From Escherichia phage MIZ6: a DNA stretch of 64,000 nt. Shown here one piece after another: positions 30,919-61,500 of this stretch (position 1 is the first letter of the stretch; each line of letters opens with the position of its first letter). Location: sequence record OR192075.1; one strand, written 5' to 3'. Position numbers and translations under genes: made by a program. The notes under the pieces are model-generated. The model was given only the letters and a program-made list of their open reading frames with translations. It searched no databases and was not told the origin of the DNA.

Positions 30919-31631
30919 AGATCCTTATTGGCTTCAAATACTGCCTTTGCGAATCCTCGCGGGGTAAGTGACCTGATAGTCTTTGTTCTGGTTCCTTTCC
31001 CGCCTAGCTTAGAATGCTGTTTACTGTACCCTTTATTAATCTGCAACGGTTTCTTTTCTGGCATTATAAAGCCTTGTCCGGTCCATAAGCAAGTCTTTTT
31101 CGGGTACATATCACGGGCGGCAATATACTCAGGAAACGTAGGATGTTTATCATCTTCCGGCAAATAACCGCCATATTCCCACGGATGGAACATGTAATCA
31201 GGCTTACGCCACATACTAGAGATAACGCTTACAGGATTCTCTATCATGTAGGGAACTCCTATCCATTCACCCAAATAAGCGGTTATTTTAGCTGCCCGTA
31301 CATCATGAACTTGAATCAATGGTCCTTGTTCTCGTTTCTTTCGTTCAAAGTGCGCAGCGCCACTAACAGCTAAATTGGTGCACGGTGGGAATGCAAATAT
31401 AATATCCGGTTTCCCCCATTCAAGGTCCATTGCTCTTTCCAGCCAGTTCAAATCAATCCAGGTGTTTACATAGGTAATGTTTGGATGTTCAAATCTGGTA
31501 TTATACTTTTTGTATGTACCGTGGTCGGCGTCATCCGCATTAAAGCAGACTACCTTATGACCTGCTTTAGCCCATTCTAGCCCCATTATCCCCGATCCGT
31601 CAAAGTTGCAGAATATTAATTTTTGTTTCAT
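30915..31631 (-). CDS. Minimal C5-cytosine methyltransferase-fold protein
   Basis: 238 aa; FDGSG (motif I-like), FPPCT (motif IV PC-like), ENP (motif VI-like) at DNMT-like spacing; too short for a full TRD. Confidence 0.45.
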   Translation of the reverse strand: MKQKLIFCNFDGSGIMGLEWAKAGHKVVCFNADDADHGTYKKYNTRFEHPNITYVNTWIDLNWLERAMDLEWGKPDIIFAFPPCTNLAVSGAAHFERKKREQGPLIQVHDVRAAKITAYLGEWIGVPYMIENPVSVISSMWRKPDYMFHPWEYGGYLPEDDKHPTFPEYIAARDMYPKKTCLWTGQGFIMPEKKPLQINKGYSKQHSKLGGKGTRTKTIRSLTPRGFAKAVFEANKDL

Positions 31632-31873
31632 ATACGACCCTTTAACCCAGCACAGATTTTAGTCGGTTCTTTACCGTGCCACATTAAGTAAAGTCCGTTA
31701 ATGCGACCTTGTTTTGTGTGTGATTCTTTTCTGATCTTCTTATAGTGTCGTGCTTCCTCAACTGATTGTTTAGAATACCAATCATAAAGGAAGAGGCACA
31801 AAGGCCAACCATTAGCGGCCTTAATGCAGTTATTAAGAAATTCCTTATTGCGTTTAATTAATTTTCTTTTCAC
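31628..31873 (-). CDS. Hypothetical basic protein (81 aa)
   Basis: GTG start overlapping upstream stop (GTGA); GGGGG SD-like upstream. Confidence 0.4.
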   Translation of the reverse strand: MKRKLIKRNKEFLNNCIKAANGWPLCLFLYDWYSKQSVEEARHYKKIRKESHTKQGRINGLYLMWHGKEPTKICAGLKGRI

Positions 31874-32121
31874 GCTGCCCCCATTGGTTTGATAGTAACA
31901 GAATCTAAAAGACCTTTGTTAGCCAGTTCGCGGCAAGTTTTCAGATCCGCAACTTCCCAGCCAGCCGCAATCAGGTTATCAATGAGGCTGTTAGCAACTT
32001 CTTCGCTCATGAAAGAGCACTGTTTGCCTATGGTGTAGCGTACACGCTGTAATTTCAGTTTACGGAAGCCTTTAACGTTCAGGTCTTTAGCGATTTTCTT
32101 TGCGGTTTCGATGTTAGCCAT
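31870..32121 (-). CDS. Hypothetical protein (83 aa), first gene of operon
   Basis: ATG preceded by GGAGAATCAAAC leader. Confidence 0.5.
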   Translation of the reverse strand: MANIETAKKIAKDLNVKGFRKLKLQRVRYTIGKQCSFMSEEVANSLIDNLIAAGWEVADLKTCRELANKGLLDSVTIKPMGAA

Positions 32122-32161
32122 TGTTTGATTCTCCTAAGTGGTATCTCGTCTTGATGGTTGT

Positions 32162-32191
32162 ATTGTAGGGGATCTCCCGATCCCCTGTCAA
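32162..32191 (-). promoter_or_regulatory. Early promoter cassette (TTGACA-18-TACAAT), palindromic GATC spacer
   Basis: Spacer GGGGATC-GGGA-GATCCCC; heads the five-gene operon 30066..32121. Confidence 0.55.
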
Positions 32192-32205
32192 CACTTTTTA
32201 TAAAA

Positions 32206-32373
32206 TTATTTGTTAATTTCTGGTGCGTTGCTCGGATAGTAACCTTCTTTAACACCAAGATATTTTGCAACCATTCCTACAATCTTCTGTGCTACTACAA
32301 TGTCAAATTTCAGATAATCTTCGCCGTGGGTTTCAATGATATATGCTTCACATGCTGCTTTAGTCTCGAACAT
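32206..32373 (-). CDS. Hypothetical small protein (55 aa), paralog of 36524..36691
   Basis: 3' 72 nt identical to 36524..36595; SD GGAGAATCAAA before ATG. Confidence 0.5.
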   Translation of the reverse strand: MFETKAACEAYIIETHGEDYLKFDIVVAQKIVGMVAKYLGVKEGYYPSNAPEINK

Positions 32374-32407
32374 TTTGATTCTCCTATTTCGTTTCGTTAT
32401 GTGTGTA

Positions 32408-32436
32408 TTATAGGGGATCTCCCGATCCCCGTCAAC
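32408..32436 (-). promoter_or_regulatory. Early promoter cassette (TTGACG-17-TATAAT), palindromic GATC spacer
   Basis: Spacer GGGATCGGGAGATCCCC. Confidence 0.55.
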
Positions 32437-32448
32437 AACTTTTTAAAA

Positions 32449-32922
32449 TTATTTGCACCAAATTCGAATGATTTCGTCTCGTTCAAATTTTTGCCAGATT
32501 ACTCGGTCGCCCGCTGCCATAATACTGACAAATCCAGTTATATTTCCGGTGTACTTGCTTTTAGTTTCTGCATCATATTCAAAGAATGGAGCTTTAAGAT
32601 CGCTAAACTCATCTTTTCCCACAAACTTCATAACATGACGGTGTGCGTAATATTCGCTTCTTAGTGTTGTTGTGATAGTTCCGTCATCATTTGATTTCAG
32701 ATGCAATTCGGCATCTTCATAAAGACTTGCATCTCGTTGTTTACTTTCGATACCATCATTATATGTTGATTTGGTTGCACTCCAACATTGATATGTCTTA
32801 TCTACATTTTCGATCTTTTCCTGTGTCATGTCAAAAAGCGGCGCAACCTTTTTCTTAGCCGCGTGCGCAACGTTGGTCATAGACAGTGCCGCAACAACCG
32901 CAATAGCAATAATTTTCTTCAT
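32449..32922 (-). CDS. Predicted secreted/periplasmic protein
   Basis: 157 aa; N-terminal signal peptide MKKIIAIAVVAALSMTNVAHA followed by AKKK. Confidence 0.55.
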   Translation of the reverse strand: MKKIIAIAVVAALSMTNVAHAAKKKVAPLFDMTQEKIENVDKTYQCWSATKSTYNDGIESKQRDASLYEDAELHLKSNDDGTITTTLRSEYYAHRHVMKFVGKDEFSDLKAPFFEYDAETKSKYTGNITGFVSIMAAGDRVIWQKFERDEIIRIWCK

Positions 32923-32983
32923 AATATCATCTCCTTTGGTTTATATGGCGGGAGTATCTTAGCAATACTCCCTTAATACTATA

Positions 32984-33265
32984 TTATTCGTGATTAGTTT
33001 CGATGTTGTGCATTTTGCACCAGTTCAGCCAATCGCCCAGATCTTGATAGTTGATGCTTTTATCTGCTGCCATCGTTTTTGTCTTGATACCCATATGTGC
33101 GTTATGAGTAAGCATTTTTACAGTGAACTCAATTTTATCGCCTTTAGCTTTAACATCAACCAGTTTGGTCCACTGGCTACCAGCGCCGCGAATGTTCATG
33201 CCAACGATGTTTCCGATGTATGCTTCTTTGTTTTTCAGGATTTCGGTTGCTTTGATGAATTTCAT
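32984..33265 (-). CDS. Hypothetical early protein (93 aa)
   Basis: Conserved leader and promoter cassette upstream. Confidence 0.5.
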   Translation of the reverse strand: MKFIKATEILKNKEAYIGNIVGMNIRGAGSQWTKLVDVKAKGDKIEFTVKMLTHNAHMGIKTKTMAADKSINYQDLGDWLNWCKMHNIETNHE

Positions 33266-33298
33266 TTTTGATTCTCCAGTTCGTTTCGGTATGGGTGT

Positions 33299-33327
33299 AT
33301 TATGCTATGTTCTTACTTTGGTGTCAA
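33299..33327 (-). promoter_or_regulatory. Early promoter cassette (TTGACA-17-CATAAT)
   Basis: Minus-strand hexamers; A-tract upstream of -35. Confidence 0.55.
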
Positions 33328-33335
33328 CAACTTTT

Positions 33336-33605
33336 TTAGATATTTTCAGAAATAAATTTTAAAACTTGACGTAAATGTTTCTCATCTTTGATAGTCGCCG
33401 GAAGTTCTTCTTTTACTTCCTGTGCAAGATAGATATTTCCGTTCCAAGTGAAAGATCCGTCTTCGTTTACGCGATAGCTGAACATCCACTCGCAATCATT
33501 TTCGATTTCATATACACACAGAAGGGTGTAATCGTTAAAGCTATTGATTTCAAGGTCGAAGCCGTGACGTTTTGCAAAGTTGGTAGTGGTTTTAGTCAGT
33601 GCCAT
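33336..33605 (-). CDS. Hypothetical early protein (89 aa)
   Basis: Conserved leader GGAGAATCAAACA before ATG. Confidence 0.5.
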   Translation of the reverse strand: MALTKTTTNFAKRHGFDLEINSFNDYTLLCVYEIENDCEWMFSYRVNEDGSFTWNGNIYLAQEVKEELPATIKDEKHLRQVLKFISENI

Positions 33606-33645
33606 TGTTTGATTCTCCTAAGTGGTATCTCGTTTCGATGGGTGT

Positions 33646-33674
33646 ATTATGCTATACACAGGATCTGGTGTCAA
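33646..33674 (-). promoter_or_regulatory. Early promoter cassette (TTGACA-17-CATAAT)
   Basis: Minus-strand hexamers; partial inverted repeat over -10. Confidence 0.55.
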
Positions 33675-33696
33675 CAACTTTTTTAAAAAATAGGCA

Positions 33697-33722
33697 ATAA
33701 AAAAGCCGACACTATGGTCGGC
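33697..33722 (-). terminator. Rho-independent terminator
   Basis: GCCGAC-ACTATG-GTCGGC with A-run on plus strand. Confidence 0.65.
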
Positions 33723-33727
33723 ACATT

Positions 33728-33982
33728 TTAAAAATTCTTGCTATATATGCAAGCCTCATAATCTAGAGGATGACCGCCAATCCTACCAGGCTTAATATTC
33801 CAACCGCATCGATATTTGCTGACCATGCTAACCGTTTCGGTTCTTAGAGCATTTCTTTGCAAATCATACCCCCTAAATTCTTGTCTATAAGGACAGTCCG
33901 CTTTGCAAGTTGGCGGTTCTACGTCATTTAGCGGGTCAGAAGCAGTTGGCTTTATTATCAATTCTTTGTTTGCAATAATCAT
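33728..33982 (-). CDS. Hypothetical protein (start uncertain)
   Basis: Track ORF 33728..34045 overlaps upstream gene; internal ATG at 33982 chosen; Cys-containing. Confidence 0.3.
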   Translation of the reverse strand: MIIANKELIIKPTASDPLNDVEPPTCKADCPYRQEFRGYDLQRNALRTETVSMVSKYRCGWNIKPGRIGGHPLDYEACIYSKNF

Positions 33983-34115
33983 AAGCACATCCCATTGAAG
34001 GCAATTTAACATCTTCGCAATAAGTGTTGAATCCGTCAAATACAATCACTTCGTATTTGACTCCATCGGCGATAGCTTTTACTTTATACCATCCATGCTT
34101 GTATAAAATCTTCAT
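33936..34115 (-). CDS. Hypothetical small protein (59 aa)
   Basis: ATG at 34115 preceded by GAGGGAAATAAAG; track ORF extends with TTG start. Confidence 0.45.
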   Translation of the reverse strand: MKILYKHGWYKVKAIADGVKYEVIVFDGFNTYCEDVKLPSMGCAYDYCKQRIDNKANCF

Positions 34116-34148
34116 CTTTATTTCCCTCAATCTCGTTTCGATTGGTGT

Positions 34149-34177
34149 ATTATGCTATAGGCGTGAACTGGTGTCAA
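34149..34177 (-). promoter_or_regulatory. Early promoter cassette (TTGACA-17-CATAAT)
   Basis: Minus-strand hexamers. Confidence 0.55.
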
Positions 34178-34202
34178 TGCCTTTTTTTAAAATTTTATGC
34201 AA

Positions 34203-34227
34203 TAAAAAAGCCGACACTAAGGTCGGC
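34203..34227 (-). terminator. Rho-independent terminator
   Basis: GCCGAC-ACTAAG-GTCGGC with A-run on plus strand. Confidence 0.65.
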
Positions 34228-34235
34228 TAATAAAA

Positions 34236-34544
34236 TCATTTAGACAAATAATCATTCTGTGCAATCCGGTCGGCGTATGCTGGTGTTATGTCAATCGCCA
34301 GCACTTTAACGCGTGCTTTCTTGCGACCTGGGTTTTCTCGTAACCAGTGCTCATGACCGTGAACATTTTTATACTTTGATGCTGTTTCGAAAGTACGGAT
34401 CGGACCTGGGTAATCAGCGTAAAGGATCTCTAGATCTTCGGTGATGTAAAAATATACATCGTAATTGCTGTTCTCTAGCTTAAGCAGAGACTTTCGGAAC
34501 ATTGGGAGATTTTCGCGGGTAAATTCAAAGATATTATCTTTCAT
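34236..34544 (-). CDS. HxHW-motif small protein family, member 1
   Basis: 102 aa; YDVYFYITEDLEI ... HGHEHWL ... VKVLAIDI. Confidence 0.5.
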   Translation of the reverse strand: MKDNIFEFTRENLPMFRKSLLKLENSNYDVYFYITEDLEILYADYPGPIRTFETASKYKNVHGHEHWLRENPGRKKARVKVLAIDITPAYADRIAQNDYLSK

Positions 34545-34567
34545 AGTATTATCCTCAATAGTTGGAT

Positions 34568-34588
34568 GAAAAGGGGCGTTAACGCCCC
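34568..34588 (-). terminator. Terminator-like hairpin
   Basis: GGGGCG-TTAA-CGCCCC with flanking A/T runs. Confidence 0.5.
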
Positions 34589-34594
34589 CATATA

Positions 34595-34882
34595 TTAAAA
34601 CAGTCCTTCCTGTACACCGTAGTAGAGTTCGTCGCTGATAATTTCATTAATGCGACGGTGTGCATATTCCTGATTTGCGAAGTTGTCAGCAAGTTCTACT
34701 TTAGTTTCGCCGTCATGAGTCCATTTAGTGATAACTTTACCATCTGCAAATTTGAAGTTGAACTCTTTAGCTACTGCATCGCGTACCAGACGTGCAAACT
34801 TATTGTTGCGGATTGCATTGTCGGTTTCGTGTGCAGCGTGAGCAAATTTGTTAACTTTCAGAGTGATAGTGATGTATGCCAT
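34595..34882 (-). CDS. Hypothetical early protein (95 aa)
   Basis: Leader GGAGAATCAAATT before ATG. Confidence 0.5.
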   Translation of the reverse strand: MAYITITLKVNKFAHAAHETDNAIRNNKFARLVRDAVAKEFNFKFADGKVITKWTHDGETKVELADNFANQEYAHRRINEIISDELYYGVQEGLF

Positions 34883-34928
34883 AATTTGATTCTCCTAGTT
34901 AGAAAGTGTATCTCGTTTCGATGGGTGT

Positions 34929-34957
34929 ATTATGCTATACACCCGATCCGTTGTCAA
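34929..34957 (-). promoter_or_regulatory. Early promoter cassette (TTGACA-17-CATAAT) with inverted repeat GGGTGTAT/ATACACCC
   Basis: Perfect 8-bp inverted repeat 34923..34944 overlapping -10. Confidence 0.55.
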
Positions 34958-34963
34958 CACTTT

Positions 34964-35242
34964 TTATAAAATAATTTTTTGATATTTTTCTATGATGTTT
35001 GTGTAGGTCACATCAACCGCTAGCACCGTTGCTTCGAATCCACCGTTTAGCCAATGGCTATGGTCATGATCGTGAAAGAAACCAAGACCAGTACGAAGAC
35101 CTTCTTTATATTCGGCGCGTACATTTAGATCATCATCGATAAACAGATAAAACCATGAATTTTTACTAGGATTGATGATACAACCTTTCAGATTAGGGAG
35201 AATATCACGACTAAGAATAAACTTATCACCTACTTTTAGCAT
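34964..35242 (-). CDS. HxHW-motif family, member 2
   Basis: From ATG 35242 (SD GTGAGGAAA); FYLFIDDDLNV ... HDHDHSHWL ... VLAVDV. Confidence 0.5.
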   Translation of the reverse strand: MLKVGDKFILSRDILPNLKGCIINPSKNSWFYLFIDDDLNVRAEYKEGLRTGLGFFHDHDHSHWLNGGFEATVLAVDVTYTNIIEKYQKIIL

Positions 35243-35256
35243 AATATTTTCCTCAC

Positions 35257-35565
35257 TTATAAAGTTTGACCGTTGTTTTTCGCGTAATGCTGAATGCGTG
35301 CTTGATCTGCTTCCGCTGGTGATAGATTCCATGCGATCACTACAACTTCTGACGCATCATGATCATTATCACTTACCCAATGATTATGATTCATACAATT
35401 GTTTGCTATCGCGTGAGAAAATGATCTCATTACCGGAGACGTATAATCATAGTAACGGATTTTCAGATTTTCATCAACGTACAAGTAGATCGTATACGGC
35501 TTATATTCAGTAACCAGTAACAGACAGTTACGCAATTCTGGGAAAATCTTTTTAGTTAATTTCAT
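35257..35565 (-). CDS. HxHW-motif family, member 3
   Basis: From ATG 35565 (SD CGAGGATTA); IYLYVDENLKI ... NHNHW ... VVVIAW. Confidence 0.45.
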   Translation of the reverse strand: MKLTKKIFPELRNCLLLVTEYKPYTIYLYVDENLKIRYYDYTSPVMRSFSHAIANNCMNHNHWVSDNDHDASEVVVIAWNLSPAEADQARIQHYAKNNGQTL

Positions 35566-35566
35566 T

Positions 35567-35785
35567 TTATAATCCTCGGTCGCGGCTATAGTACACGGTA
35601 CGCCATACAATTTCATGTTTCGTGTCGCTCCAGCACACGATCTCATTTACTCTTAAATCTTTGTTATCAACAAAAGATGAACATTGTGACGCTTCTTTCA
35701 TCATTTTATCTGCTGTTTTCTCATCAAATACAGCACAGATTTCTTTATACACTCGATAATCTTTGAATTGACTCTGGATACCCAT
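35567..35785 (-). CDS. Hypothetical small protein, paralog of 35745..36002
   Basis: Shared FK.Y..Y ... KMM.EAS.C.SF motif with neighbour; 41-nt out-of-frame overlap. Confidence 0.4.
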   Translation of the reverse strand: MGIQSQFKDYRVYKEICAVFDEKTADKMMKEASQCSSFVDNKDLRVNEIVCWSDTKHEIVWRTVYYSRDRGL

Positions 35786-36002
35786 AATTAACACCATTCC
35801 AACCAATTGTTTTTGAGAAAACGTTTATCCACTGTTGAGTGTAGCATGTTTCTTTCCATGATACAATACGAGTAGAATAATGGTTTTTGTTTCCAGAAAA
35901 GGACGGGCATTTTGATGCATCTTCCATCATCTTTTCGGCGAACTCTGGTGCGTATACTCGCAGGATCTGTTGATATGCTTTGTATTCTTTAAATTTGCTC
36001 AT
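35745..36002 (-). CDS. Hypothetical small protein, paralog of 35567..35785
   Basis: MSKFKEYKAY ... EKMMEDASKCPSF. Confidence 0.4.
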   Translation of the reverse strand: MSKFKEYKAYQQILRVYAPEFAEKMMEDASKCPSFSGNKNHYSTRIVSWKETCYTQQWINVFSKTIGWNGVNYGYPESIQRLSSV

Positions 36003-36267
36003 AATCATTCACTACCTTATCAGCTTCTTTTGTTGTTTTTACATCAACTGCGATAACTCGTAAAGGTTCGTCATGGTTCCACCAGTGGTCATGAATATCA
36101 GCTTGTGATTTATCACCAAAGGAATCACGAATATCATTTTTACATTTATAGCTAATGTGACCTTCATAGTCAACATAAAGGTAATTATCGAAAATCGGCG
36201 TTTTTAAGATCATACCGAAAAATCTTTCTTTGTGTGTCTTATCCAGCGTTGCAGTAATTCGCATCAT
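35989..36267 (-). CDS. HxHW-motif family, member 4
   Basis: NYLYVDYEGHI ... IHDHWW ... VIAVDV; SD AGAGGAATA. Confidence 0.5.
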   Translation of the reverse strand: MMRITATLDKTHKERFFGMILKTPIFDNYLYVDYEGHISYKCKNDIRDSFGDKSQADIHDHWWNHDEPLRVIAVDVKTTKEADKVVNDYEQI

Positions 36268-36279
36268 AATATATTCCTC

Positions 36280-36459
36280 TTAGAAAGGGATGGTCATTTC
36301 TTGAGCTTGTACGTTCTCGTTAGGATTAAACTTCATCCAGCCGATATTGTCTACCAGCATATGCACATTTTTATCATATCCTACGTGGGTAGTCAATACT
36401 GTATGTGCTTTACCTTCAATGATGAGTTCCATGTACTTCTGAACTTCGATAGCTTTCAT
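36280..36459 (-). CDS. Hypothetical small protein (59 aa)
   Basis: ATG preceded by GGAGAATCAAA; promoter cassette upstream. Confidence 0.45.
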   Translation of the reverse strand: MKAIEVQKYMELIIEGKAHTVLTTHVGYDKNVHMLVDNIGWMKFNPNENVQAQEMTIPF

Positions 36460-36491
36460 TTTGATTCTCCGTTTGTTGTCTTGATGGGAGT

Positions 36492-36520
36492 ATCTTACTA
36501 CTCCCTTTAATCATTGTCAA
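36492..36520 (-). promoter_or_regulatory. Early promoter cassette (TTGACA-17-TAAGAT) with inverted repeat GGGAGTA/TACTCCC
   Basis: Minus-strand hexamers; heads the run 36459 down to 34964. Confidence 0.5.
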
Positions 36521-36523
36521 CTA

Positions 36524-36691
36524 TTATTTGTTAATTTCTGGTGCGTTGCTCGGATAGTAACCTTCTTTAACACCAAGATATTTTGCAACCATTCCGGTGA
36601 TCTTCTGTGCTACTACGATATCGAATTTCAGGTAGTCTTCACCGTGGTTTGCTACAATGTATGCTTCGCATTCTGCTTTAGTCTGGAACAT
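36524..36691 (-). CDS. Hypothetical small protein (55 aa), paralog of 32206..32373
   Basis: 3' 72 nt identical to 32206..32277. Confidence 0.5.
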   Translation of the reverse strand: MFQTKAECEAYIVANHGEDYLKFDIVVAQKITGMVAKYLGVKEGYYPSNAPEINK

Positions 36692-36723
36692 TTTTGATTC
36701 TCCTATCTCGTTGGTATGTGTGC

Positions 36724-36752
36724 ATTATAGGGGATCACCGATCCCCTGTCAA
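36724..36752 (-). promoter_or_regulatory. Early promoter cassette (TTGACA-17-TATAAT), palindromic GATC spacer
   Basis: Spacer GGGGATCACCGATCCCC. Confidence 0.6.
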
Positions 36753-36757
36753 CAACT

Positions 36758-37051
36758 TTATAATGCTTTATATGCGTATTTCATAAATTTGTCTGCCACT
36801 TCATTGGCATGTTCAGATTCTACGCCTGATTCGAGAACAATAGCTAGGTCGGTTTCGTCATTCCCGCCGTACCAATGATTTGATGTTCGATTTTTTTCAA
36901 TTGGAAATTGGTCACTTTTATCTGTGCGACAAAATACATCTAAATGCTCGTCGATGTAAAAGATCCAATCTTCATAAAGAATAACGGTATTAGCCAGATT
37001 TTTATTGCCTTCAACGAAAGGTTCGGCTACAAACAAATTAGTATGTTCCAT
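36758..37051 (-). CDS. HxHW-motif family, member 5 (divergent)
   Basis: From ATG 37051; ILYEDWIFYIDEHLDV ... SNHWYGG ... LAIVLESG. Confidence 0.4.
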   Translation of the reverse strand: MEHTNLFVAEPFVEGNKNLANTVILYEDWIFYIDEHLDVFCRTDKSDQFPIEKNRTSNHWYGGNDETDLAIVLESGVESEHANEVADKFMKYAYKAL

Positions 37052-37067
37052 AGTATTTTCCTCAAAA

Positions 37068-37259
37068 TTATACAGCTTCGTAAACTTCCCAATGTCCAAC
37101 ACCAGCACGCTTAACGAAAAGGTTTTCTTTTATGTTATTCATAAACGTCTGGATGGATTTAATGCGGTTTGAAGGTTTCCATTCTTCGTTGGTATTGCGT
37201 CGATACATCATAACATTACCAGTTCGCTTATATTCAGCAACCATTTTAAGACCACACAT
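37068..37259 (-). CDS. Hypothetical small protein (63 aa)
   Basis: SD TTGAGGATAA before ATG. Confidence 0.45.
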   Translation of the reverse strand: MCGLKMVAEYKRTGNVMMYRRNTNEEWKPSNRIKSIQTFMNNIKENLFVKRAGVGHWEVYEAV

Positions 37260-37315
37260 AATATTATCCTCAATTTGTGGGAGAGTATTACCCTCCCGAT
37301 TATTGTTATACTACA

Positions 37316-37618
37316 TTACGCAAAATGGCGTGTCAATGCTTCTTTTGCTGTTCCGCTAAGATTCTCGATCTCTCCTGGCATAACATCAACCGCAAGAACT
37401 TCTACAACATCCTCTGATCCTAACCAGTGAGTATGACCTTTGTAGAACTTGATATCCCATTTATCGCTATCGCTAGCCCACCACACATCACCGTCGATAA
37501 AGTTGATGTAAAGCACACTACGCCACATTGAATTAATTACTTTCAATACTGCGCCTTTCATCTCTTCCACGGTGTGGTCTTCCATTTTGAAGACCTCACC
37601 TACCTGAACTTTTGCCAT
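37316..37618 (-). CDS. HxHW-motif family, member 6
   Basis: LYINFIDGDVW ... GHTHWLG ... VLAVDV; SD AGAGGTGA. Confidence 0.5.
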   Translation of the reverse strand: MAKVQVGEVFKMEDHTVEEMKGAVLKVINSMWRSVLYINFIDGDVWWASDSDKWDIKFYKGHTHWLGSEDVVEVLAVDVMPGEIENLSGTAKEALTRHFA

Positions 37619-37886: not shown

Positions 37887-38198
37887 TTAAAGTTTTTCCA
37901 TGATAACGGTCATAATTACATCTTCTGCGCGAGCGGTCAGATTATCAGCGTCAGCATGTGGGCGGCTGGTTGTTACAGAGATAACACCGTTGCGCACTGG
38001 TTTGATGTTGATATCAAGATGATCCGCGAAACGTTCGCCAGTTACAGAATGAATTTTGGTGTTAAATTCTTTTGCCAGTGCCTTGCGAACTTCACGAATC
38101 AGGGTAGCGTTTTTCAGTTGGTTCTCCGCGCTCATGGTCTTCTGGGTGTTCATGGTTCCGTCGAAGTCAATCATTGGCAGCGTTACGATGTATTTCAT
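37887..38198 (-). CDS. Hypothetical early protein (103 aa)
   Basis: ATG 38198 preceded by GGAGAATCAAAA. Confidence 0.5.
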   Translation of the reverse strand: MKYIVTLPMIDFDGTMNTQKTMSAENQLKNATLIREVRKALAKEFNTKIHSVTGERFADHLDINIKPVRNGVISVTTSRPHADADNLTARAEDVIMTVIMEKL

Positions 38199-38284: not shown

Positions 38285-38761
38285 TTATTTTTCTTGATGC
38301 TCGCGATCGTACTTTTCGAAATAAAATTCTACTGGCTGGTCGTGGATTGACAGCAAGCCAAAGCGTTTAGCCGCTCGCAATCCCATATTGCGCTGAATGT
38401 ACTTCTGGAAGTTCTCGCGTATACACTTACGCCAGTATTCTAAGCCCATACAGCTTTTATAAAGATTGCATTGCACACACGCCGGATTCATGTTATAAAG
38501 TATATCATGCTCCGGTTTATGCATTCCTACAACCTTATATTTCCATGATCCATCATCATTACGGGCAATTCGTCCATTTTCATCATAGACTACCTTTGAG
38601 CGTCGCAATACTGGTTTGATGTGGTCTGCGTGCCAGCGATCCCCTAGTTCCTCGCCACAATAGGCACAACGTCCACCATATTTCATTTTCAGGATCTGGC
38701 GTTGCTCTTTCTTTGACAATTTTTTAGGTTTAGGGGCTTTCGCCCCTTCATTATCACACAT
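38285..38761 (-). CDS. HNH endonuclease (free-standing, homing-endonuclease-like)
   Basis: CAYCG ... HADHIKP ... N ... CVQCN ... K motif; overlaps ligase stop by 8 nt. Confidence 0.7.
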   Translation of the reverse strand: MCDNEGAKAPKPKKLSKKEQRQILKMKYGGRCAYCGEELGDRWHADHIKPVLRRSKVVYDENGRIARNDDGSWKYKVVGMHKPEHDILYNMNPACVQCNLYKSCMGLEYWRKCIRENFQKYIQRNMGLRAAKRFGLLSIHDQPVEFYFEKYDREHQEK

Positions 38762-42362: not shown

Positions 42363-43240
42363 TAAAAGTCTCCGTAGTTAACCTGAAAACATTCTACACC
42401 AATTGAGCGGTACATGTCAACCACTTGATCACGGTCATCTACTGCCAACACAACATGATAACGCGGTGCAATTTCAGAGAAGAAAATCTCTTTCTTCACT
42501 TCATGATCAGGACGACGATCATTAGTTTCACGTTGAAAATGATCGCTAGGTTCAATACCCTGTTCACGCAGCCATTGCAGAGTATCTTCTTCGCAAACAT
42601 CCTCACGCCCTGAGCATGTAATGATACGATAACCATTATCACGATACAGTTTAAGCATTTCGATCACTTGCGGACGCGGTTTATCTTCTTTGACCTTTGT
42701 CCAGTCAAACGGATGACGACCGCCCTTATCCGCTAATGTTCCATCAATATCAAAGATCACTGCCTTCGGCAGCATGGTATTCGGTTTGTATACTTCTTGA
42801 CCCATATATTCCTGCATCAGATAAAATTGGTTGCGCAAATTAGAAAGTGGAATTGCTTTCTCGCCGCGATAGAAATTACGTTTCTTTAGTGTCTCAAATG
42901 ATTCATTGAACACTTGTTCAGTATACACCGCGTTAAATTCTTTTGCAAGTTCTTTGTAGAATACACGATGTTTTTCTTTCAGGTTGGTATCGGAGATAAT
43001 GATACTCAATCCGCGTGATAGAGTCTCACGAGCAATCATTCTCTGAATAGACTCTACCAGCTTTTCTTTTTCCTTAGTATACTTGTATTTCAAATGTGAG
43101 TCAACACCAAACAACATAAGACGAAGATCATCACGATTCACATTACGATAATTACTAAACCGTTTACACGTTTCCATAGCCCATGTAGTTTTACCGGACC
43201 CAGAACAACCAACGGTTAAAATCACTTCACATTTCGGCAT
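42362..43240 (-). CDS. pseT: Polynucleotide kinase / 3'-phosphatase
   Basis: From ATG 43240; Walker A GCSGSGKTT and HAD phosphatase motif VIFDIDGTL. Confidence 0.9.
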   Translation of the reverse strand: MPKCEVILTVGCSGSGKTTWAMETCKRFSNYRNVNRDDLRLMLFGVDSHLKYKYTKEKEKLVESIQRMIARETLSRGLSIIISDTNLKEKHRVFYKELAKEFNAVYTEQVFNESFETLKKRNFYRGEKAIPLSNLRNQFYLMQEYMGQEVYKPNTMLPKAVIFDIDGTLADKGGRHPFDWTKVKEDKPRPQVIEMLKLYRDNGYRIITCSGREDVCEEDTLQWLREQGIEPSDHFQRETNDRRPDHEVKKEIFFSEIAPRYHVVLAVDDRDQVVDMYRSIGVECFQVNYGDF

Positions 43241-46072: not shown

Positions 46073-46105
46073 CTTGGTACTCCTTAGTTGTTTTGGTGTG
46101 GGAGT

Positions 46106-46134
46106 ATCTTACTACTCCCGTGATATGCTGTCAA
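46106..46134 (-). promoter_or_regulatory. Early promoter cassette (TTGACA-17-TAAGAT), inverted repeat GGGAGTA/TACTCCC
   Basis: Minus-strand hexamers. Confidence 0.5.
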
Positions 46135-46142
46135 CTGCTTTT

Positions 46143-46292
46143 TTATGCAACCGCAAACATCAACATTTGAACATTCTTGGCTGTCTGGCTTTCAAAGTTC
46201 TGACATTCTTTGATAATGTCCTCTACTTTCTCGCCGGAGATCTCCGCGTAAGTTTCGATTGCCATTTTCAGTACCGCGTCAAAGTTGTTCAT
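46143..46292 (-). CDS. Hypothetical small protein (49 aa)
   Basis: ATG preceded by GGAGAATCAAA; intact after anchoring to flanking ORFs. Confidence 0.4.
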   Translation of the reverse strand: MNNFDAVLKMAIETYAEISGEKVEDIIKECQNFESQTAKNVQMLMFAVA

Positions 46293-46332
46293 TTGATTCT
46301 CCTTAAAGTGTATTTCGTTTCGATGGGGGGGT

Positions 46333-46361
46333 ATATTACTACCCCCGTTTCATGCTGTCAA
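46333..46361 (-). promoter_or_regulatory. Early promoter cassette (TTGACA-17-TAATAT)
   Basis: Inverted repeat GGGGGTA/TACCCCC over -10. Confidence 0.5.
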
Positions 46362-46580
46362 CTACTTTTTAATGACAAGTTCGAATTTTGCTACCTTGCG
46401 TCCTCGTTTATTGAAAGCAACCCACGGACGGTTTTCAATGTAGAACAATTCTTCACCAATAATGAATACTGGCTGATTGTAAAGGCGACCCATCAGGTCA
46501 CGCTGGCGAATGGTAGTAGATTCGTATACTTCGCCTACTACAAAGTGTTTGCTGATAGAGTCGGTGCAAGTAAATTTCAT
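46362..46580 (-). CDS. Hypothetical early protein (72 aa)
   Basis: Leader GGAGAATCAAA before ATG. Confidence 0.5.
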   Translation of the reverse strand: MKFTCTDSISKHFVVGEVYESTTIRQRDLMGRLYNQPVFIIGEELFYIENRPWVAFNKRGRKVAKFELVIKK

Positions 46581-58555: not shown

Positions 58556-61500
58556 ATGGCAGATTTTTCTCAACATTTCAAGGCCACATTTGGCTTTGAC
58601 GCTGGTAATGAAAAGGTCGTCAATGTAGCATACGCAGATAAAAACACATCAACGGATGCGGTCAACGTTGAATTTTTCAATTACCATAATGGTATTACTC
58701 AGTATGACACAACTCGCGGTTATGATCAATACGGAACTACAATCTATCAAAACCGTCCGTATTATGCAAAAGAAGATATCACAAAGCCAGCAGGTGATTT
58801 TGACCCGACTAAATGGCAAGCACTGCGCACCGATCCACGTTGGGATTATATTGCAGCAACTTCCGGTGATACTCCTTTAAAGTCTGGTGATTATATCGCA
58901 GCAGATGGTCAATTTGCAAACTTGACTTTCTCTATGCCAACTAAACCAGCAGAGGGAGACACTATAACAGTAAAAGATATCGGTGGCAAGTGTGGTGTTA
59001 ACGAATTATCGTTCTTGAGTTCAGGACATGAGTTTTACCATAACGGTAATGTGTATAACCGAAAATGGTATTGCACTACCCCGTATGCAATGAACTATTT
59101 CATCTTTGTTCGGAATCGTTGGCATGTTTATCAGACGGGAACAGAGCCGCGCGGTGTGTACGCACAGCCAGCGATTGATGCTATTCAAATGCAGAATGGT
59201 GACCAGGTATTTCGTCGTAGTTCGTTGGGTAATATTACCTTAGTGCTTCCTAAGTTTGCCAACAATGGCGACATGATCCAGACTACAGACCTTGACGGAT
59301 TAACCGCAACCAACCACGTTACGGTTAAAGTTCATGAGCACGCAGAAGAACAATCAATTGGCACGTCCGGTCTAAAAGAGATTATCGGTAAGCGTAGCGG
59401 TCATGGTGTATTCATCTTTGACAAGACGGAAAACTTATGGCGTTTGTGGGATGGTGATCAGTCTGTTCGTCTTAAACCGATCATCGATGACACTCGCTTG
59501 CAACCTAATAGCTATGTTGCTGTATTTGGTGATCGTGATGTTACTCTGACGCTGCCGACCAATGTCGAGCCGGGTGATCGTATTCAAGTTTCTATGCAGT
59601 ATATGCACGGAAACCAGAATTGCCGTATTATCACCCCCACAGAGGATACAAAAATCCTTATGCAGAAAAACATGGTTCAGTTTCCTAAGCGTAGCGAGTA
59701 CCCATTCAACGGGACCGACACATGGAAGGAAGTGTCTGAATTGTCGTTCAATGCGGCTAGTGATTATGTACCTTATCTGGAGTTCTCTTATTCAGAAGGT
59801 GATGATGGTAAGAAACATTGGCTGGTAGCACACTCTCATCCGATCGTCGAACGAGTAGACCCTACTCGTAAAGAGCGTGTTGGTGTAATTGCACTGGCTA
59901 CCCAGGATGAAACAAACAAAAACCATGAAGATAATCCTAGCGACGAAGTTGCGGTGACTCCAAAGGTTCTGGCTAATAAAACAGCCAACGAAACTCGACG
60001 CGGTATTGCTCGCATTGCAACTCAAGCGGAAACGCATCAAGATACTGGTTCCAACTTCCTGGATGATGTTATCGTTACGCCTAAAAAGTTAAATGACTGT
60101 GTTGCTACCGAAGCCCGTCGTGGTGTGATGGAAATTGCAACCCAGCACGAAACCAATGAAGGTTTAGACGATACCCGCGCTATTACTCCTAAGAAATTAG
60201 AAGAACGTCGCGCTTCCGAAGATCTCGCTGGTATTGCTGAAATTGTTCAGGTTGGCGGTAGTGCTGCCGCTCGACGTGGCGAAGCTGGTACAGGGATCTA
60301 TAACATCAACGACCATGCTAAAATTGTTACGCCAAAAAACATCAACGAGGTCAAGGCGACCGAAACTTCCCGTGGTGTTGGCTATCTGGCAACTGACGCG
60401 GAAGTGCAAGGGGCTACAGAATCAACCCCGCAAGATGCTTTACTAATCACGACTCGCACGCTAACGAAACGTACTGCTACCGAATCGCGCACTGGTATCG
60501 CTGAAATTGCAACTCAGGAAGAAACAAACTTAGGTCAAAGTGATAACCATATCATCACGCCTAAAAAGCTGCATACTCGCCGCGCAACGGAAACTTTACA
60601 TGGTTTAGCAGAAATTGCAACTCAGCCGGAATTTGACGCAGGTCTTGACGATGCTCGCATTTCTACTCCATTGAAGATTAAAACCTTCTTTGAGAATGCA
60701 CAGCGTTTGAAAGTAGATCCGACTCAGGGGCTTAACCTTACTGGTGATTTGTGGCAAGGTATCATGATCAGCGGTCTGGATGCAACCGAAGACACAAAAG
60801 GTGTCGCTAAAGTTGCTACTACTCAGCTTACGGATGCTGGTCAAGATGATACTACAATCATCACGCCTAAAAAGCTGCAAGGCAAAAAAGCCACCGAAGG
60901 TAAAGAAGGTATTATCCGCGTTGGTACTCAAGCCGAAACCGTGGCTGGTACACTGGCTAATGTAGCAATTTCTCCGAAGAACTTCAAATATGTTGTTCAG
61001 ACAGAGGATACATGGAAAGCAACCGAAGCTCGTCGTGGTTTCTTGAAAGTTGCTACTCAGGAAAACTGTTTTGTTGGTGACAATCTGCAAGGTTCTACTC
61101 AAGAACTAGGAAACTACCAGCATGACGGAATTGCTGTTACTCCGAAAGGATTAAACTACGCACTTGCTAATTTCTTACCTAAGATGGCAACCGCTCAGAA
61201 TAGTTTGAAATTGGGTAACGTAGAGGCCGCTAAATGGGCGCGTAGAGACATTGACCAGACCATAGAGAGCAATTACACGTTTAATAAAAACGTTAACGTG
61301 AAGGGCGATTTAGGGTGCTTAAAATCTGGTTCCTTTGAAACTCTTTCTGTGACTAAGAACTCTACTGATGTTCCGAGTAATGGTCATCTGGTGTTGGGTA
61401 AGCGTGGAGTTGACGGTCACACCGGAATTACTCTGCATGGTACAACCGCATCGGAAGGCATGAAAAACTCGTGGTCTATTATCGTTGGTGGTACTGGAAC

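Follow-up and report, generated by a model that had tools for sequence, protein, structure and literature searches.

Genes A and B and their genomic setting

The window analysed here, that is the whole 64-kb stretch of DNA, belongs to a Krischvirus, an RB49-like pseudo-T-even (T4-type) coliphage of the Straboviridae. Between 31.8 and 37.2 kb it matches Escherichia phage MIZ2/MIZ3 at 99.9% identity, with coinciding coordinates, and RB49, Sf20, W115 and others at 92-97%. Inside the hyperplastic region between alt and the DNA ligase gp30, which holds 28 small co-directional CDSs and whose gene content varies among 23 genomes, we have identified two paralogous genes, A and B (Table 1), lying 4.3 kb apart in direct orientation and sharing 89% amino acid and 88.7% nucleotide identity.

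Table 1. Coordinates of genes A and B, the identical block, the associated regulatory elements and the neighbouring paralogs
Feature	Position in the window	Strand	Description
Gene A	32206..32373	-	ORF of 55 aa; annotated CDS in phage MIZ2; RB49 ORF191c ortholog; PHROG 8009
Gene B	36524..36691	-	ORF of 55 aa; annotated CDS in MIZ2; RB49 ORF205c ortholog
Identical block, copy A	32205..32277	-	Gene A codons 33-55, stop codon and 1 nt; putative maximal converted tract and recipient
Identical block, copy B	36523..36595	-	Gene B codons 33-55, stop codon and 1 nt; putative donor
Gene A, apparently unconverted 5' part	32278..32373	-	Coding positions 1-96; A-type at 19/19 diagnostic sites
Gene A PeSL early promoter	32407..32435	-	TTGACG, 17 nt, TATAAT; stem-loop between the hexamers
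Gene A PeSL stem-loop	32413-32430	-	GGGGATCTCCCGATCCCC; GGGGATC-TCCC-GATCCCC
Gene A RBS	32380-32384	-	GGAGA
Gene B PeSL early promoter	36724..36752	-	TTGACA, 17 nt, TATAAT, 12/12 matches; encloses stem-loop GGGGATCGGTGATCCCC
PeSL promoter/stem-loop of the ORF190 homolog, downstream of A	32162..32191	-	No homology to the sequence downstream of B; end of cassette homology
Promoter-like site of the ORF204 homolog, downstream of B	36492..36520	-	Other stem-loop, GGGAGTAGTAAGATACTCCC (repeat family D5); unrelated to the sequence downstream of A
H-x-H-W paralogs of ~100 aa	34236-34544, 34964-35242, 35257-35565, 35989-36267, 37316-37618; probably 36758-37051

PeSLs have been described in RB49/phi1 as mobile promoter/terminator cassettes that drive the shuffling of ORFans (Arbiol et al. 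2010, PMC2839356; Comeau et al. 2014, PMC4122927), and their promoter and terminator activities, together with the formation of mini-circles, were demonstrated experimentally in these phages (PMC2839356). The features of PeSL+ORFan cassettes, namely a sigma-70-consensus promoter, a GGGG...CCCC stem-loop, an AT-rich tract and a hyperplastic location, are present at A as well as at B. Thus the cassette setting proposed in a preliminary description of this DNA was confirmed, each gene standing behind a PeSL promoter/stem-loop in the hyperplastic region known from RB49 (PMC2839356). The RBS GGAGAATCAAA is found ahead of both genes and the AT-rich tracts TTTTAAAAAG and CATTATAAAG upstream of the -35 elements of A and B. 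The PeSL and leader upstream of the two genes are homologous, with small indels, while homology ends abruptly past the stop codon because the downstream genes carry different promoter/stem-loop types; the homologous upstream part and the unrelated downstream sequences together delimit a repeated cassette unit of ~245 nt. The PeSL stem-loop downstream of A is a stable predicted hairpin (z = -3.8). Downstream of gene B (36485-36529), and twice near 46 kb (46099-46143 and 46326-46370), we observed a second class of promoter-associated stem-loop, GGGAGTA..TACTCCC, flanked by a TTGACA -35 element on one side and a weak -10 on the other and distinct from the GGGGATC...GATCCCC PeSL type.

The region contains other repeated and variable elements. 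Diverged paralogs of ~100 aa with the motif H-x-H-W ... V(L/I)A(V/I)D occupy 34236-37618 at 26-34% amino acid identity, and a second pair is found at 35567-35797 and 35745-36008 (40%). Both groups are too diverged for nucleotide-level conversion to be expected, and the possibility of similar identity blocks in the other paralogs of the region was ruled out, since these families share 26-40% amino acid identity and no long nucleotide stretches. The ORF198 (34595-34882) and ORF210 (37887-38198) homologs, which share a nucleotide and protein segment ..A(V/L)AKEFN.. of repeat family D10 that is also seen at 42932-42968, are apparently a further old pair of paralogs; in RB49/phi1, ORF210 is among the cassettes forming mini-circles. 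The window and RB49 carry the ORF192 homolog (32449-32922, 157 aa, with a signal-peptide-like N-terminus), which phi1, Sf20, kvi, G37-3 and others lack, a textbook case of the PeSL-flanked indels described by Arbiol et al. 2010. Further away, a periodic protein-coding repeat of family D6 (59881-60644, spacing 108-120 nt, motif ..IATQ.E..) probably belongs to a repeat-containing fibre or collar protein.

The identical block

According to the preliminary description, both genes encode 55-aa proteins with diverged 5' halves and share an identical 3' stretch of 72 nt that starts exactly at the stop codon. Ungapped alignment bears out nearly all of this; the two minus-strand genes have the same length, their 3' 72 nt are identical (32206-32277 and 36524-36595) and 19 differences fall in the remaining 96 nt. 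The stop codon is indeed included, but the real edge of the identity lies one base beyond it, at 32205/36523, so that the exact match (32205-32277 with 36523-36595) measures 73 nt. Far from being shorter or interrupted, the block is uninterrupted and 1 nt longer than claimed. It is the longest exact repeat within the window, the second longest, of 35 nt, lying within PeSL motifs.

The 19 differences are distributed over 10 codons with synonymous and 6 codons with amino-acid-changing substitutions, and their clustering exceeds chance. In a run-length permutation, a difference-free stretch of 72 nt with 19 differences per 168 nt was obtained with P = 2.6e-4. At synonymous sites, 10/25 were changed in codons 1-32 against 0/22 in codons 33-55 (Fisher test, P = 7.6e-4). 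The search for a recombination junction, suggested beforehand as a check, placed the maximum chi-square breakpoint at coding position 96 (permutation P = 0.0047). Directly at this side, a 4-nt mismatch cluster at coding positions 93-96 (32278-32281), which is a fixed A/B difference in all genomes examined, bounds the tract, and in comparison with the nearest A alleles all changes fall within 32233-32275 (coding positions 99-141).

Allele comparison and direction of transfer

A protein-based search for the locus in IMG/VR gave 2 loci; therefore relatives were drawn from the GenBank phage collection, where 23 related genomes, of ~58 known Krischvirus genomes, were compared, 15 of the 23 holding both copies in the alignment. 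Copies were assigned to locus A or B by their unique downstream flank, and 15 A and 21 B copies (36) were aligned.

Where both copies are held, the 5' halves of A and B differ at 16-20 positions (10 in PTE-Eco09). The 3' halves show 0 differences only in MIZ2, which equals the window, and 2-8 differences, all synonymous, in the 14 other genomes; in RB49, Phi1, JSE, ECD7 and PTE-Eco09 they differ at 6-8 synonymous sites (99, 108, 114, 117, 120, 141, 153). At these sites the canonical alleles, represented by phi1, RB49 and GEC-3S, read G99 G108 C114 C117 A120 T141 A153 at locus A and A99 A108 T114 G117 T120 A141 G153 at locus B. The A gene of the window reads A99 A108 T114 T117 T120 G141 A153, which is the allele found at the B locus of five phages (MIZ2, Sf20, TB34, W115 and kvi), and its 3' half differs at 2-6 positions from all 14 other A alleles. 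T117 in particular, which falls at 32257 in the window, is present at B loci only among the genomes aligned, apart from the A gene of the window. In its 5' half, by contrast, this gene differs at 0-3 positions from the other A copies and at 13-20 from the B copies. The recent gene conversion between cassettes put forward in the preliminary description is thus well supported.

The window's B gene has the same 3' half as the B alleles of Sf20, TB34, W115 and kvi. An unchanged donor argues that the event was non-reciprocal, and a 3' half of A that equals a B allele, including the otherwise B-only T117, argues for a transfer from B to A in the MIZ2/MIZ3 lineage; taken together, the compared alleles indicate a non-reciprocal B-to-A direction. 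The closest A alleles (W115, kvi, kaaroe and LF73P4) are only 2-3 sites from that of the window. Because only 2 sites changed in comparison with the closest of them, few positions are informative on the last event, chiefly T117 together with 99 or 141. In fact, an older B-type patch at positions 108-120 is carried by the A copies of G37-3, Sf20, TB34, OZ035808, LF73P4, W115, kaaroe and kvi, and the kvi copy is B-type at 99-120. The state of A in MIZ2 hence seems cumulative, the MIZ2 lineage having added 99, 117 and 141 to the older 108-120 patch, and at least two B-to-A transfers probably occurred, the most recent of them in this lineage.

Recurrence of patches and natural deletions

Patches are not confined to the MIZ2 lineage. 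The B genes of Brandy and PTE-Eco09 are A-type at 51-75, that of LF73P4 is A-type at 69-75 and that of OZ035808 carries an A-type base at position 7, while the A gene of PTE-Eco09 has a B-type leader and B-type positions 7-24. Judging from these mosaics, other lineages carry independent patches in both directions. In PTE-Eco09 (PQ306574) both 168-nt genes are mosaic, and its B gene (2352-2519) adjoins the ORF210 homolog, with ORF206-209 missing, a further cassette deletion.

Across the 15 A and 21 B copies no fixed A/B difference was found in positions 97-168; fixed differences occur only in two dense clusters, at 33/36/39/41 and at 93-96. At positions 108, 117 and 141 the same polymorphisms segregate at the A and the B locus, and the diversity within each locus is greater in the 3' half (A, 0.039; B, 0.031) than in the 5' half (0.007 and 0.023, respectively). 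Shared polymorphism and raised 3' diversity are classical signatures of ongoing interlocus conversion, here with tracts that would end at mismatch-dense sequence or at the end of homology.

Cognac (MZ504877, 356-523) and FL04 (PP358550, 5444-5611) hold a single 168-nt copy between the ORF190 homolog, which is the neighbour on the A side, and the ORF206 homolog, the neighbour on the B side. In both, the 4.3-kb interval that corresponds to 32206-36691 of the window (ORF192-204, about 13 ORFans) is deleted; the Cognac junction falls in the shared RBS/ATG block and that of FL04 within the PeSL stem-loop. The two single copies are the apparent crossover counterpart of the conversion patches. In Brandy, MIZ4, JK32 and UPWr_E1 the interval is kept and gene A is absent, a loss consistent with the PeSL-to-PeSL excision of Arbiol's model. 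The mosaic patterns, the direction of transfer, its non-reciprocity, the recurrence and the natural deletion products can all be read from the genomes compared here.

Probable interlocus conversion and its alternatives

We consider that the 73-nt identity is very probably the footprint of non-reciprocal ectopic homologous recombination, i.e. interlocus gene conversion, between paralogous PeSL+ORFan cassettes. An over-long identity tract, phylogenetic incongruence between two halves of one gene, unconverted copies in relatives and an unchanged donor, by which interlocus conversion is recognized, are found together at this locus.

It could be argued that an unsampled co-infecting phage supplied the complete A allele by ordinary allelic recombination, with no ectopic event in the lineage of the window. 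Krischvirus genomes are highly mosaic and 23 genomes were compared in detail, which leaves some room for such a source. Nonetheless, among the ~58 Krischvirus genomes of the phage collection only MIZ2/MIZ3 match the 251-nt A region at more than 98.8% identity, and the converted A allele has no exact match in IMG/VR. Moreover, an imported allele would still need a B-to-A conversion for T117 and G141, so that the event would be relocated and not removed. Import is in our opinion quite improbable.

We regard as similarly improbable an artefact of assembly or polishing, in which cross-mapped reads of the paralogs homogenised the MIZ2/MIZ3 consensus. No genome other than MIZ2 and MIZ3, two sister isolates whose records were deposited together, shows the full block, and the nearest A alleles are only those 2-3 sites away, as such an artefact would have it. 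Against it, the block is far shorter than typical reads and has unique flanks within about 100 nt, the 5' half of gene A is cleanly A-type with zero mixed sites, and the two separate records are concordant; like mosaics occur in at least 9 genomes from other groups, together with the matching deletion products.

The preliminary description had also offered an embedded RNA element or another nucleotide-level constraint. On this account a structured RNA, a target of an sRNA or antisense RNA, or a protein-binding site holds the 3' 72 nt identical, which would agree with a peptide of residues 33-55 that is invariant in 36/36 gene copies and with an A/B divergence that is lower in the 3' than in the 5' half in every genome. 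Yet at least 11 synonymous sites vary among orthologs in positions 97-168, the polymorphisms at 99, 105, 108, 114, 117, 120, 132, 141, 153 and 159 speaking against constraint on RNA, and within each locus it is the 3' half that is the more polymorphic. No Rfam match was obtained in 31500-37500 at E<=1. The fold of the 73-nt block compared with shuffles shows no unusual stability (z = -0.30 for the mRNA strand, -1.10 for the antisense), the 5' halves of A and B show none either, and z-scores become significant only once the flanking or downstream PeSL stem-loops are included. This suggestion finds no support here, and we give it very little credence.

Finally, ordinary divergence, with chance clustering plus purifying selection or codon preference on the C-terminal half, is scarcely tenable, for although the invariant C-terminal peptide speaks of strong amino acid constraint, the synonymous-site and run-length probabilities (P = 7.6e-4 and 2.6e-4) stand against it, the same synonymous sites vary freely among orthologs, and the A gene of the window groups with B alleles in its 3' half and with A alleles in its 5' half, two different nearest relatives for which divergence or purifying selection alone is insufficient.

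Proposed mechanism

If the identity arose by interlocus conversion, the resident B sequence (ORF205 ortholog) would have overwritten the 3' part of A (ORF191 ortholog) in the MIZ2/MIZ3 lineage, over a tract that begins just past the fixed 93-96 mismatch cluster and stops where cassette homology does, one base beyond the stop codon. A DNA end belonging to one cassette may invade its paralog on the same genome, on a sister genome or on a PeSL mini-circle; the invading 3' end would then copy a short stretch and re-anneal, so that a non-crossover patch is left behind. Were this pairing resolved as a crossover instead, the interval between the copies would be deleted and a circle produced in addition. 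Enzymology and substrate are inferred from what is established on T4-type recombination, as summarised in PMC2839356. Recombination-dependent replication of the T4 type is very active, with a homology need of about 50 bp or less, and Arbiol et al. invoke the phage recombination system for the recombination of PeSL-flanked ORFans and the formation of mini-circles in RB49/phi1 (PMC2839356). A mini-circle with ORF191-194 was detected in RB49 infections (PMC2839356), which shows that such substrates can carry gene A. Intragenomic conversion, exchange with a co-infecting genome and the mini-circle route appear indistinguishable by these data.

It is worth mentioning that an HNH endonuclease gene (ORF212 homolog, 38285-38761) lies 1.6 kb from gene B and adjoins the DNA ligase gene. 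Homing-type double-strand breaks made by this endonuclease could raise local recombination.

The encoded protein family

The A and B proteins match the PHROG 8009 profile, a family of unknown function, over residues 1-55/55 (E = 6.8e-38 for A and 1.2e-38 for B). Neither a Pfam search nor a PDB sequence search at E<=10 gave a match. This is a narrow ORFan family, with 4 clusters in 5.8 billion proteins and 3 matches (1 marginal) among 1.8 billion representatives; homologs are found in Krischvirus and, at 70-72% identity, in a few ~45-kb siphoviruses, among them swi2, SeSz-2, D10 and Bas81. In swi2 the homolog is a small ORF located between hypothetical genes close to the terminase, a context that offers no hint of its function. 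AlphaFold2, run on a 6-sequence alignment, returned a low-confidence model (pLDDT 61.5, pTM 0.32) with helices at 5-16 and 19-39 and a disordered tail, too weak a basis for fold comparison. It suggests that the product of the identical block comprises the last part of helix 2 and the disordered C-terminal tail. The peptide of the block, GMVAKYLGVKEGYYPSNAPEINK, is invariant in all copies. Given the consensus early promoter, the product is most likely an immediate-early accessory protein.

The two mismatch clusters, at codons 11-15 and 31-32, include amino-acid-changing codons; the fixed replacements are I13V, E14A and V32T. Perhaps the A/B pair is a selected arrangement of two modules, at which a C-terminal module is homogenised by frequent conversion, the clusters are shielded from conversion because A and B target different host or defence factors, and ORF191 mini-circles serve as a mobile donor or recipient. 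We hold this to be a long shot. If true, the pair would be a small device by which an early protein of host takeover or anti-defence is diversified combinatorially.

Relation to known systems and significance

The closest published system is the PeSL shuffling of RB49/phi1 (PMC2839356, PMC4122927), with which our locus shares the genus, the hyperplastic region and the PeSLs on both genes; gene A is the ortholog of ORF191, carried on the detected ORF191-194 mini-circle, and the junction of the FL04 deletion inside a PeSL stem-loop is as in the published model. Unlike an insertion, deletion or replacement at PeSLs, the MIZ exchange lies within the coding sequence and takes the form of a non-crossover patch. 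Term searches found no mention of paralogs or gene conversion in PMC2839356 and PMC4122927, nor of ORF191/ORF205 by name in PMC2839356, and the literature on ectopic gene conversion in phages yielded nothing specific to the A/B pair.

Interlocus conversion and concerted evolution have been reported for bacterial rRNA operons (PMC8022953) and eukaryotic duplicates (PMC3966223). The non-reciprocal tract, the shared polymorphisms, the raised within-locus diversity and the bounding of tracts by mismatch-dense or non-homologous sequence are common to these systems and ours. However, the present case concerns a lytic phage with its own recombination-dependent replication, genes of 168 nt and tracts of tens of nt, and two fixed mismatch clusters that keep A and B distinct. 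Similarly, T4 deletions between short direct repeats, with a homology need of ~50 bp, are on record (Singer et al. 1982 and Mosig et al. 1998, as cited in PMC2839356). Cognac and FL04 look like such deletions between the A and B repeats, with junctions in shared blocks of about 20 nt; unlike selected laboratory deletion mutants, they are natural variants inferred by comparison.

The ectopic conversion described here is a known process in a well-studied setting and involves no new mechanism or gene function; it is ordinary in highly recombinogenic phages and would not surprise a specialist. Nevertheless it has practical consequences. Trees or typing schemes based on ORF191/ORF205 will mislead, and short-read assemblies of the region need care. 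The A/B pair, with two locus-specific flanks and about 26 diagnostic sites per 168 nt, could serve as an assay of ectopic rates and tract lengths in T4-type phages. For the biology of these phages, the PeSL picture is extended in that the coding sequences of duplicated cassettes would recombine too, exchanging short patches in both directions, and resolution of the same pairing as a crossover would cost the phage a 4.3-kb block with about 13 ORFans.
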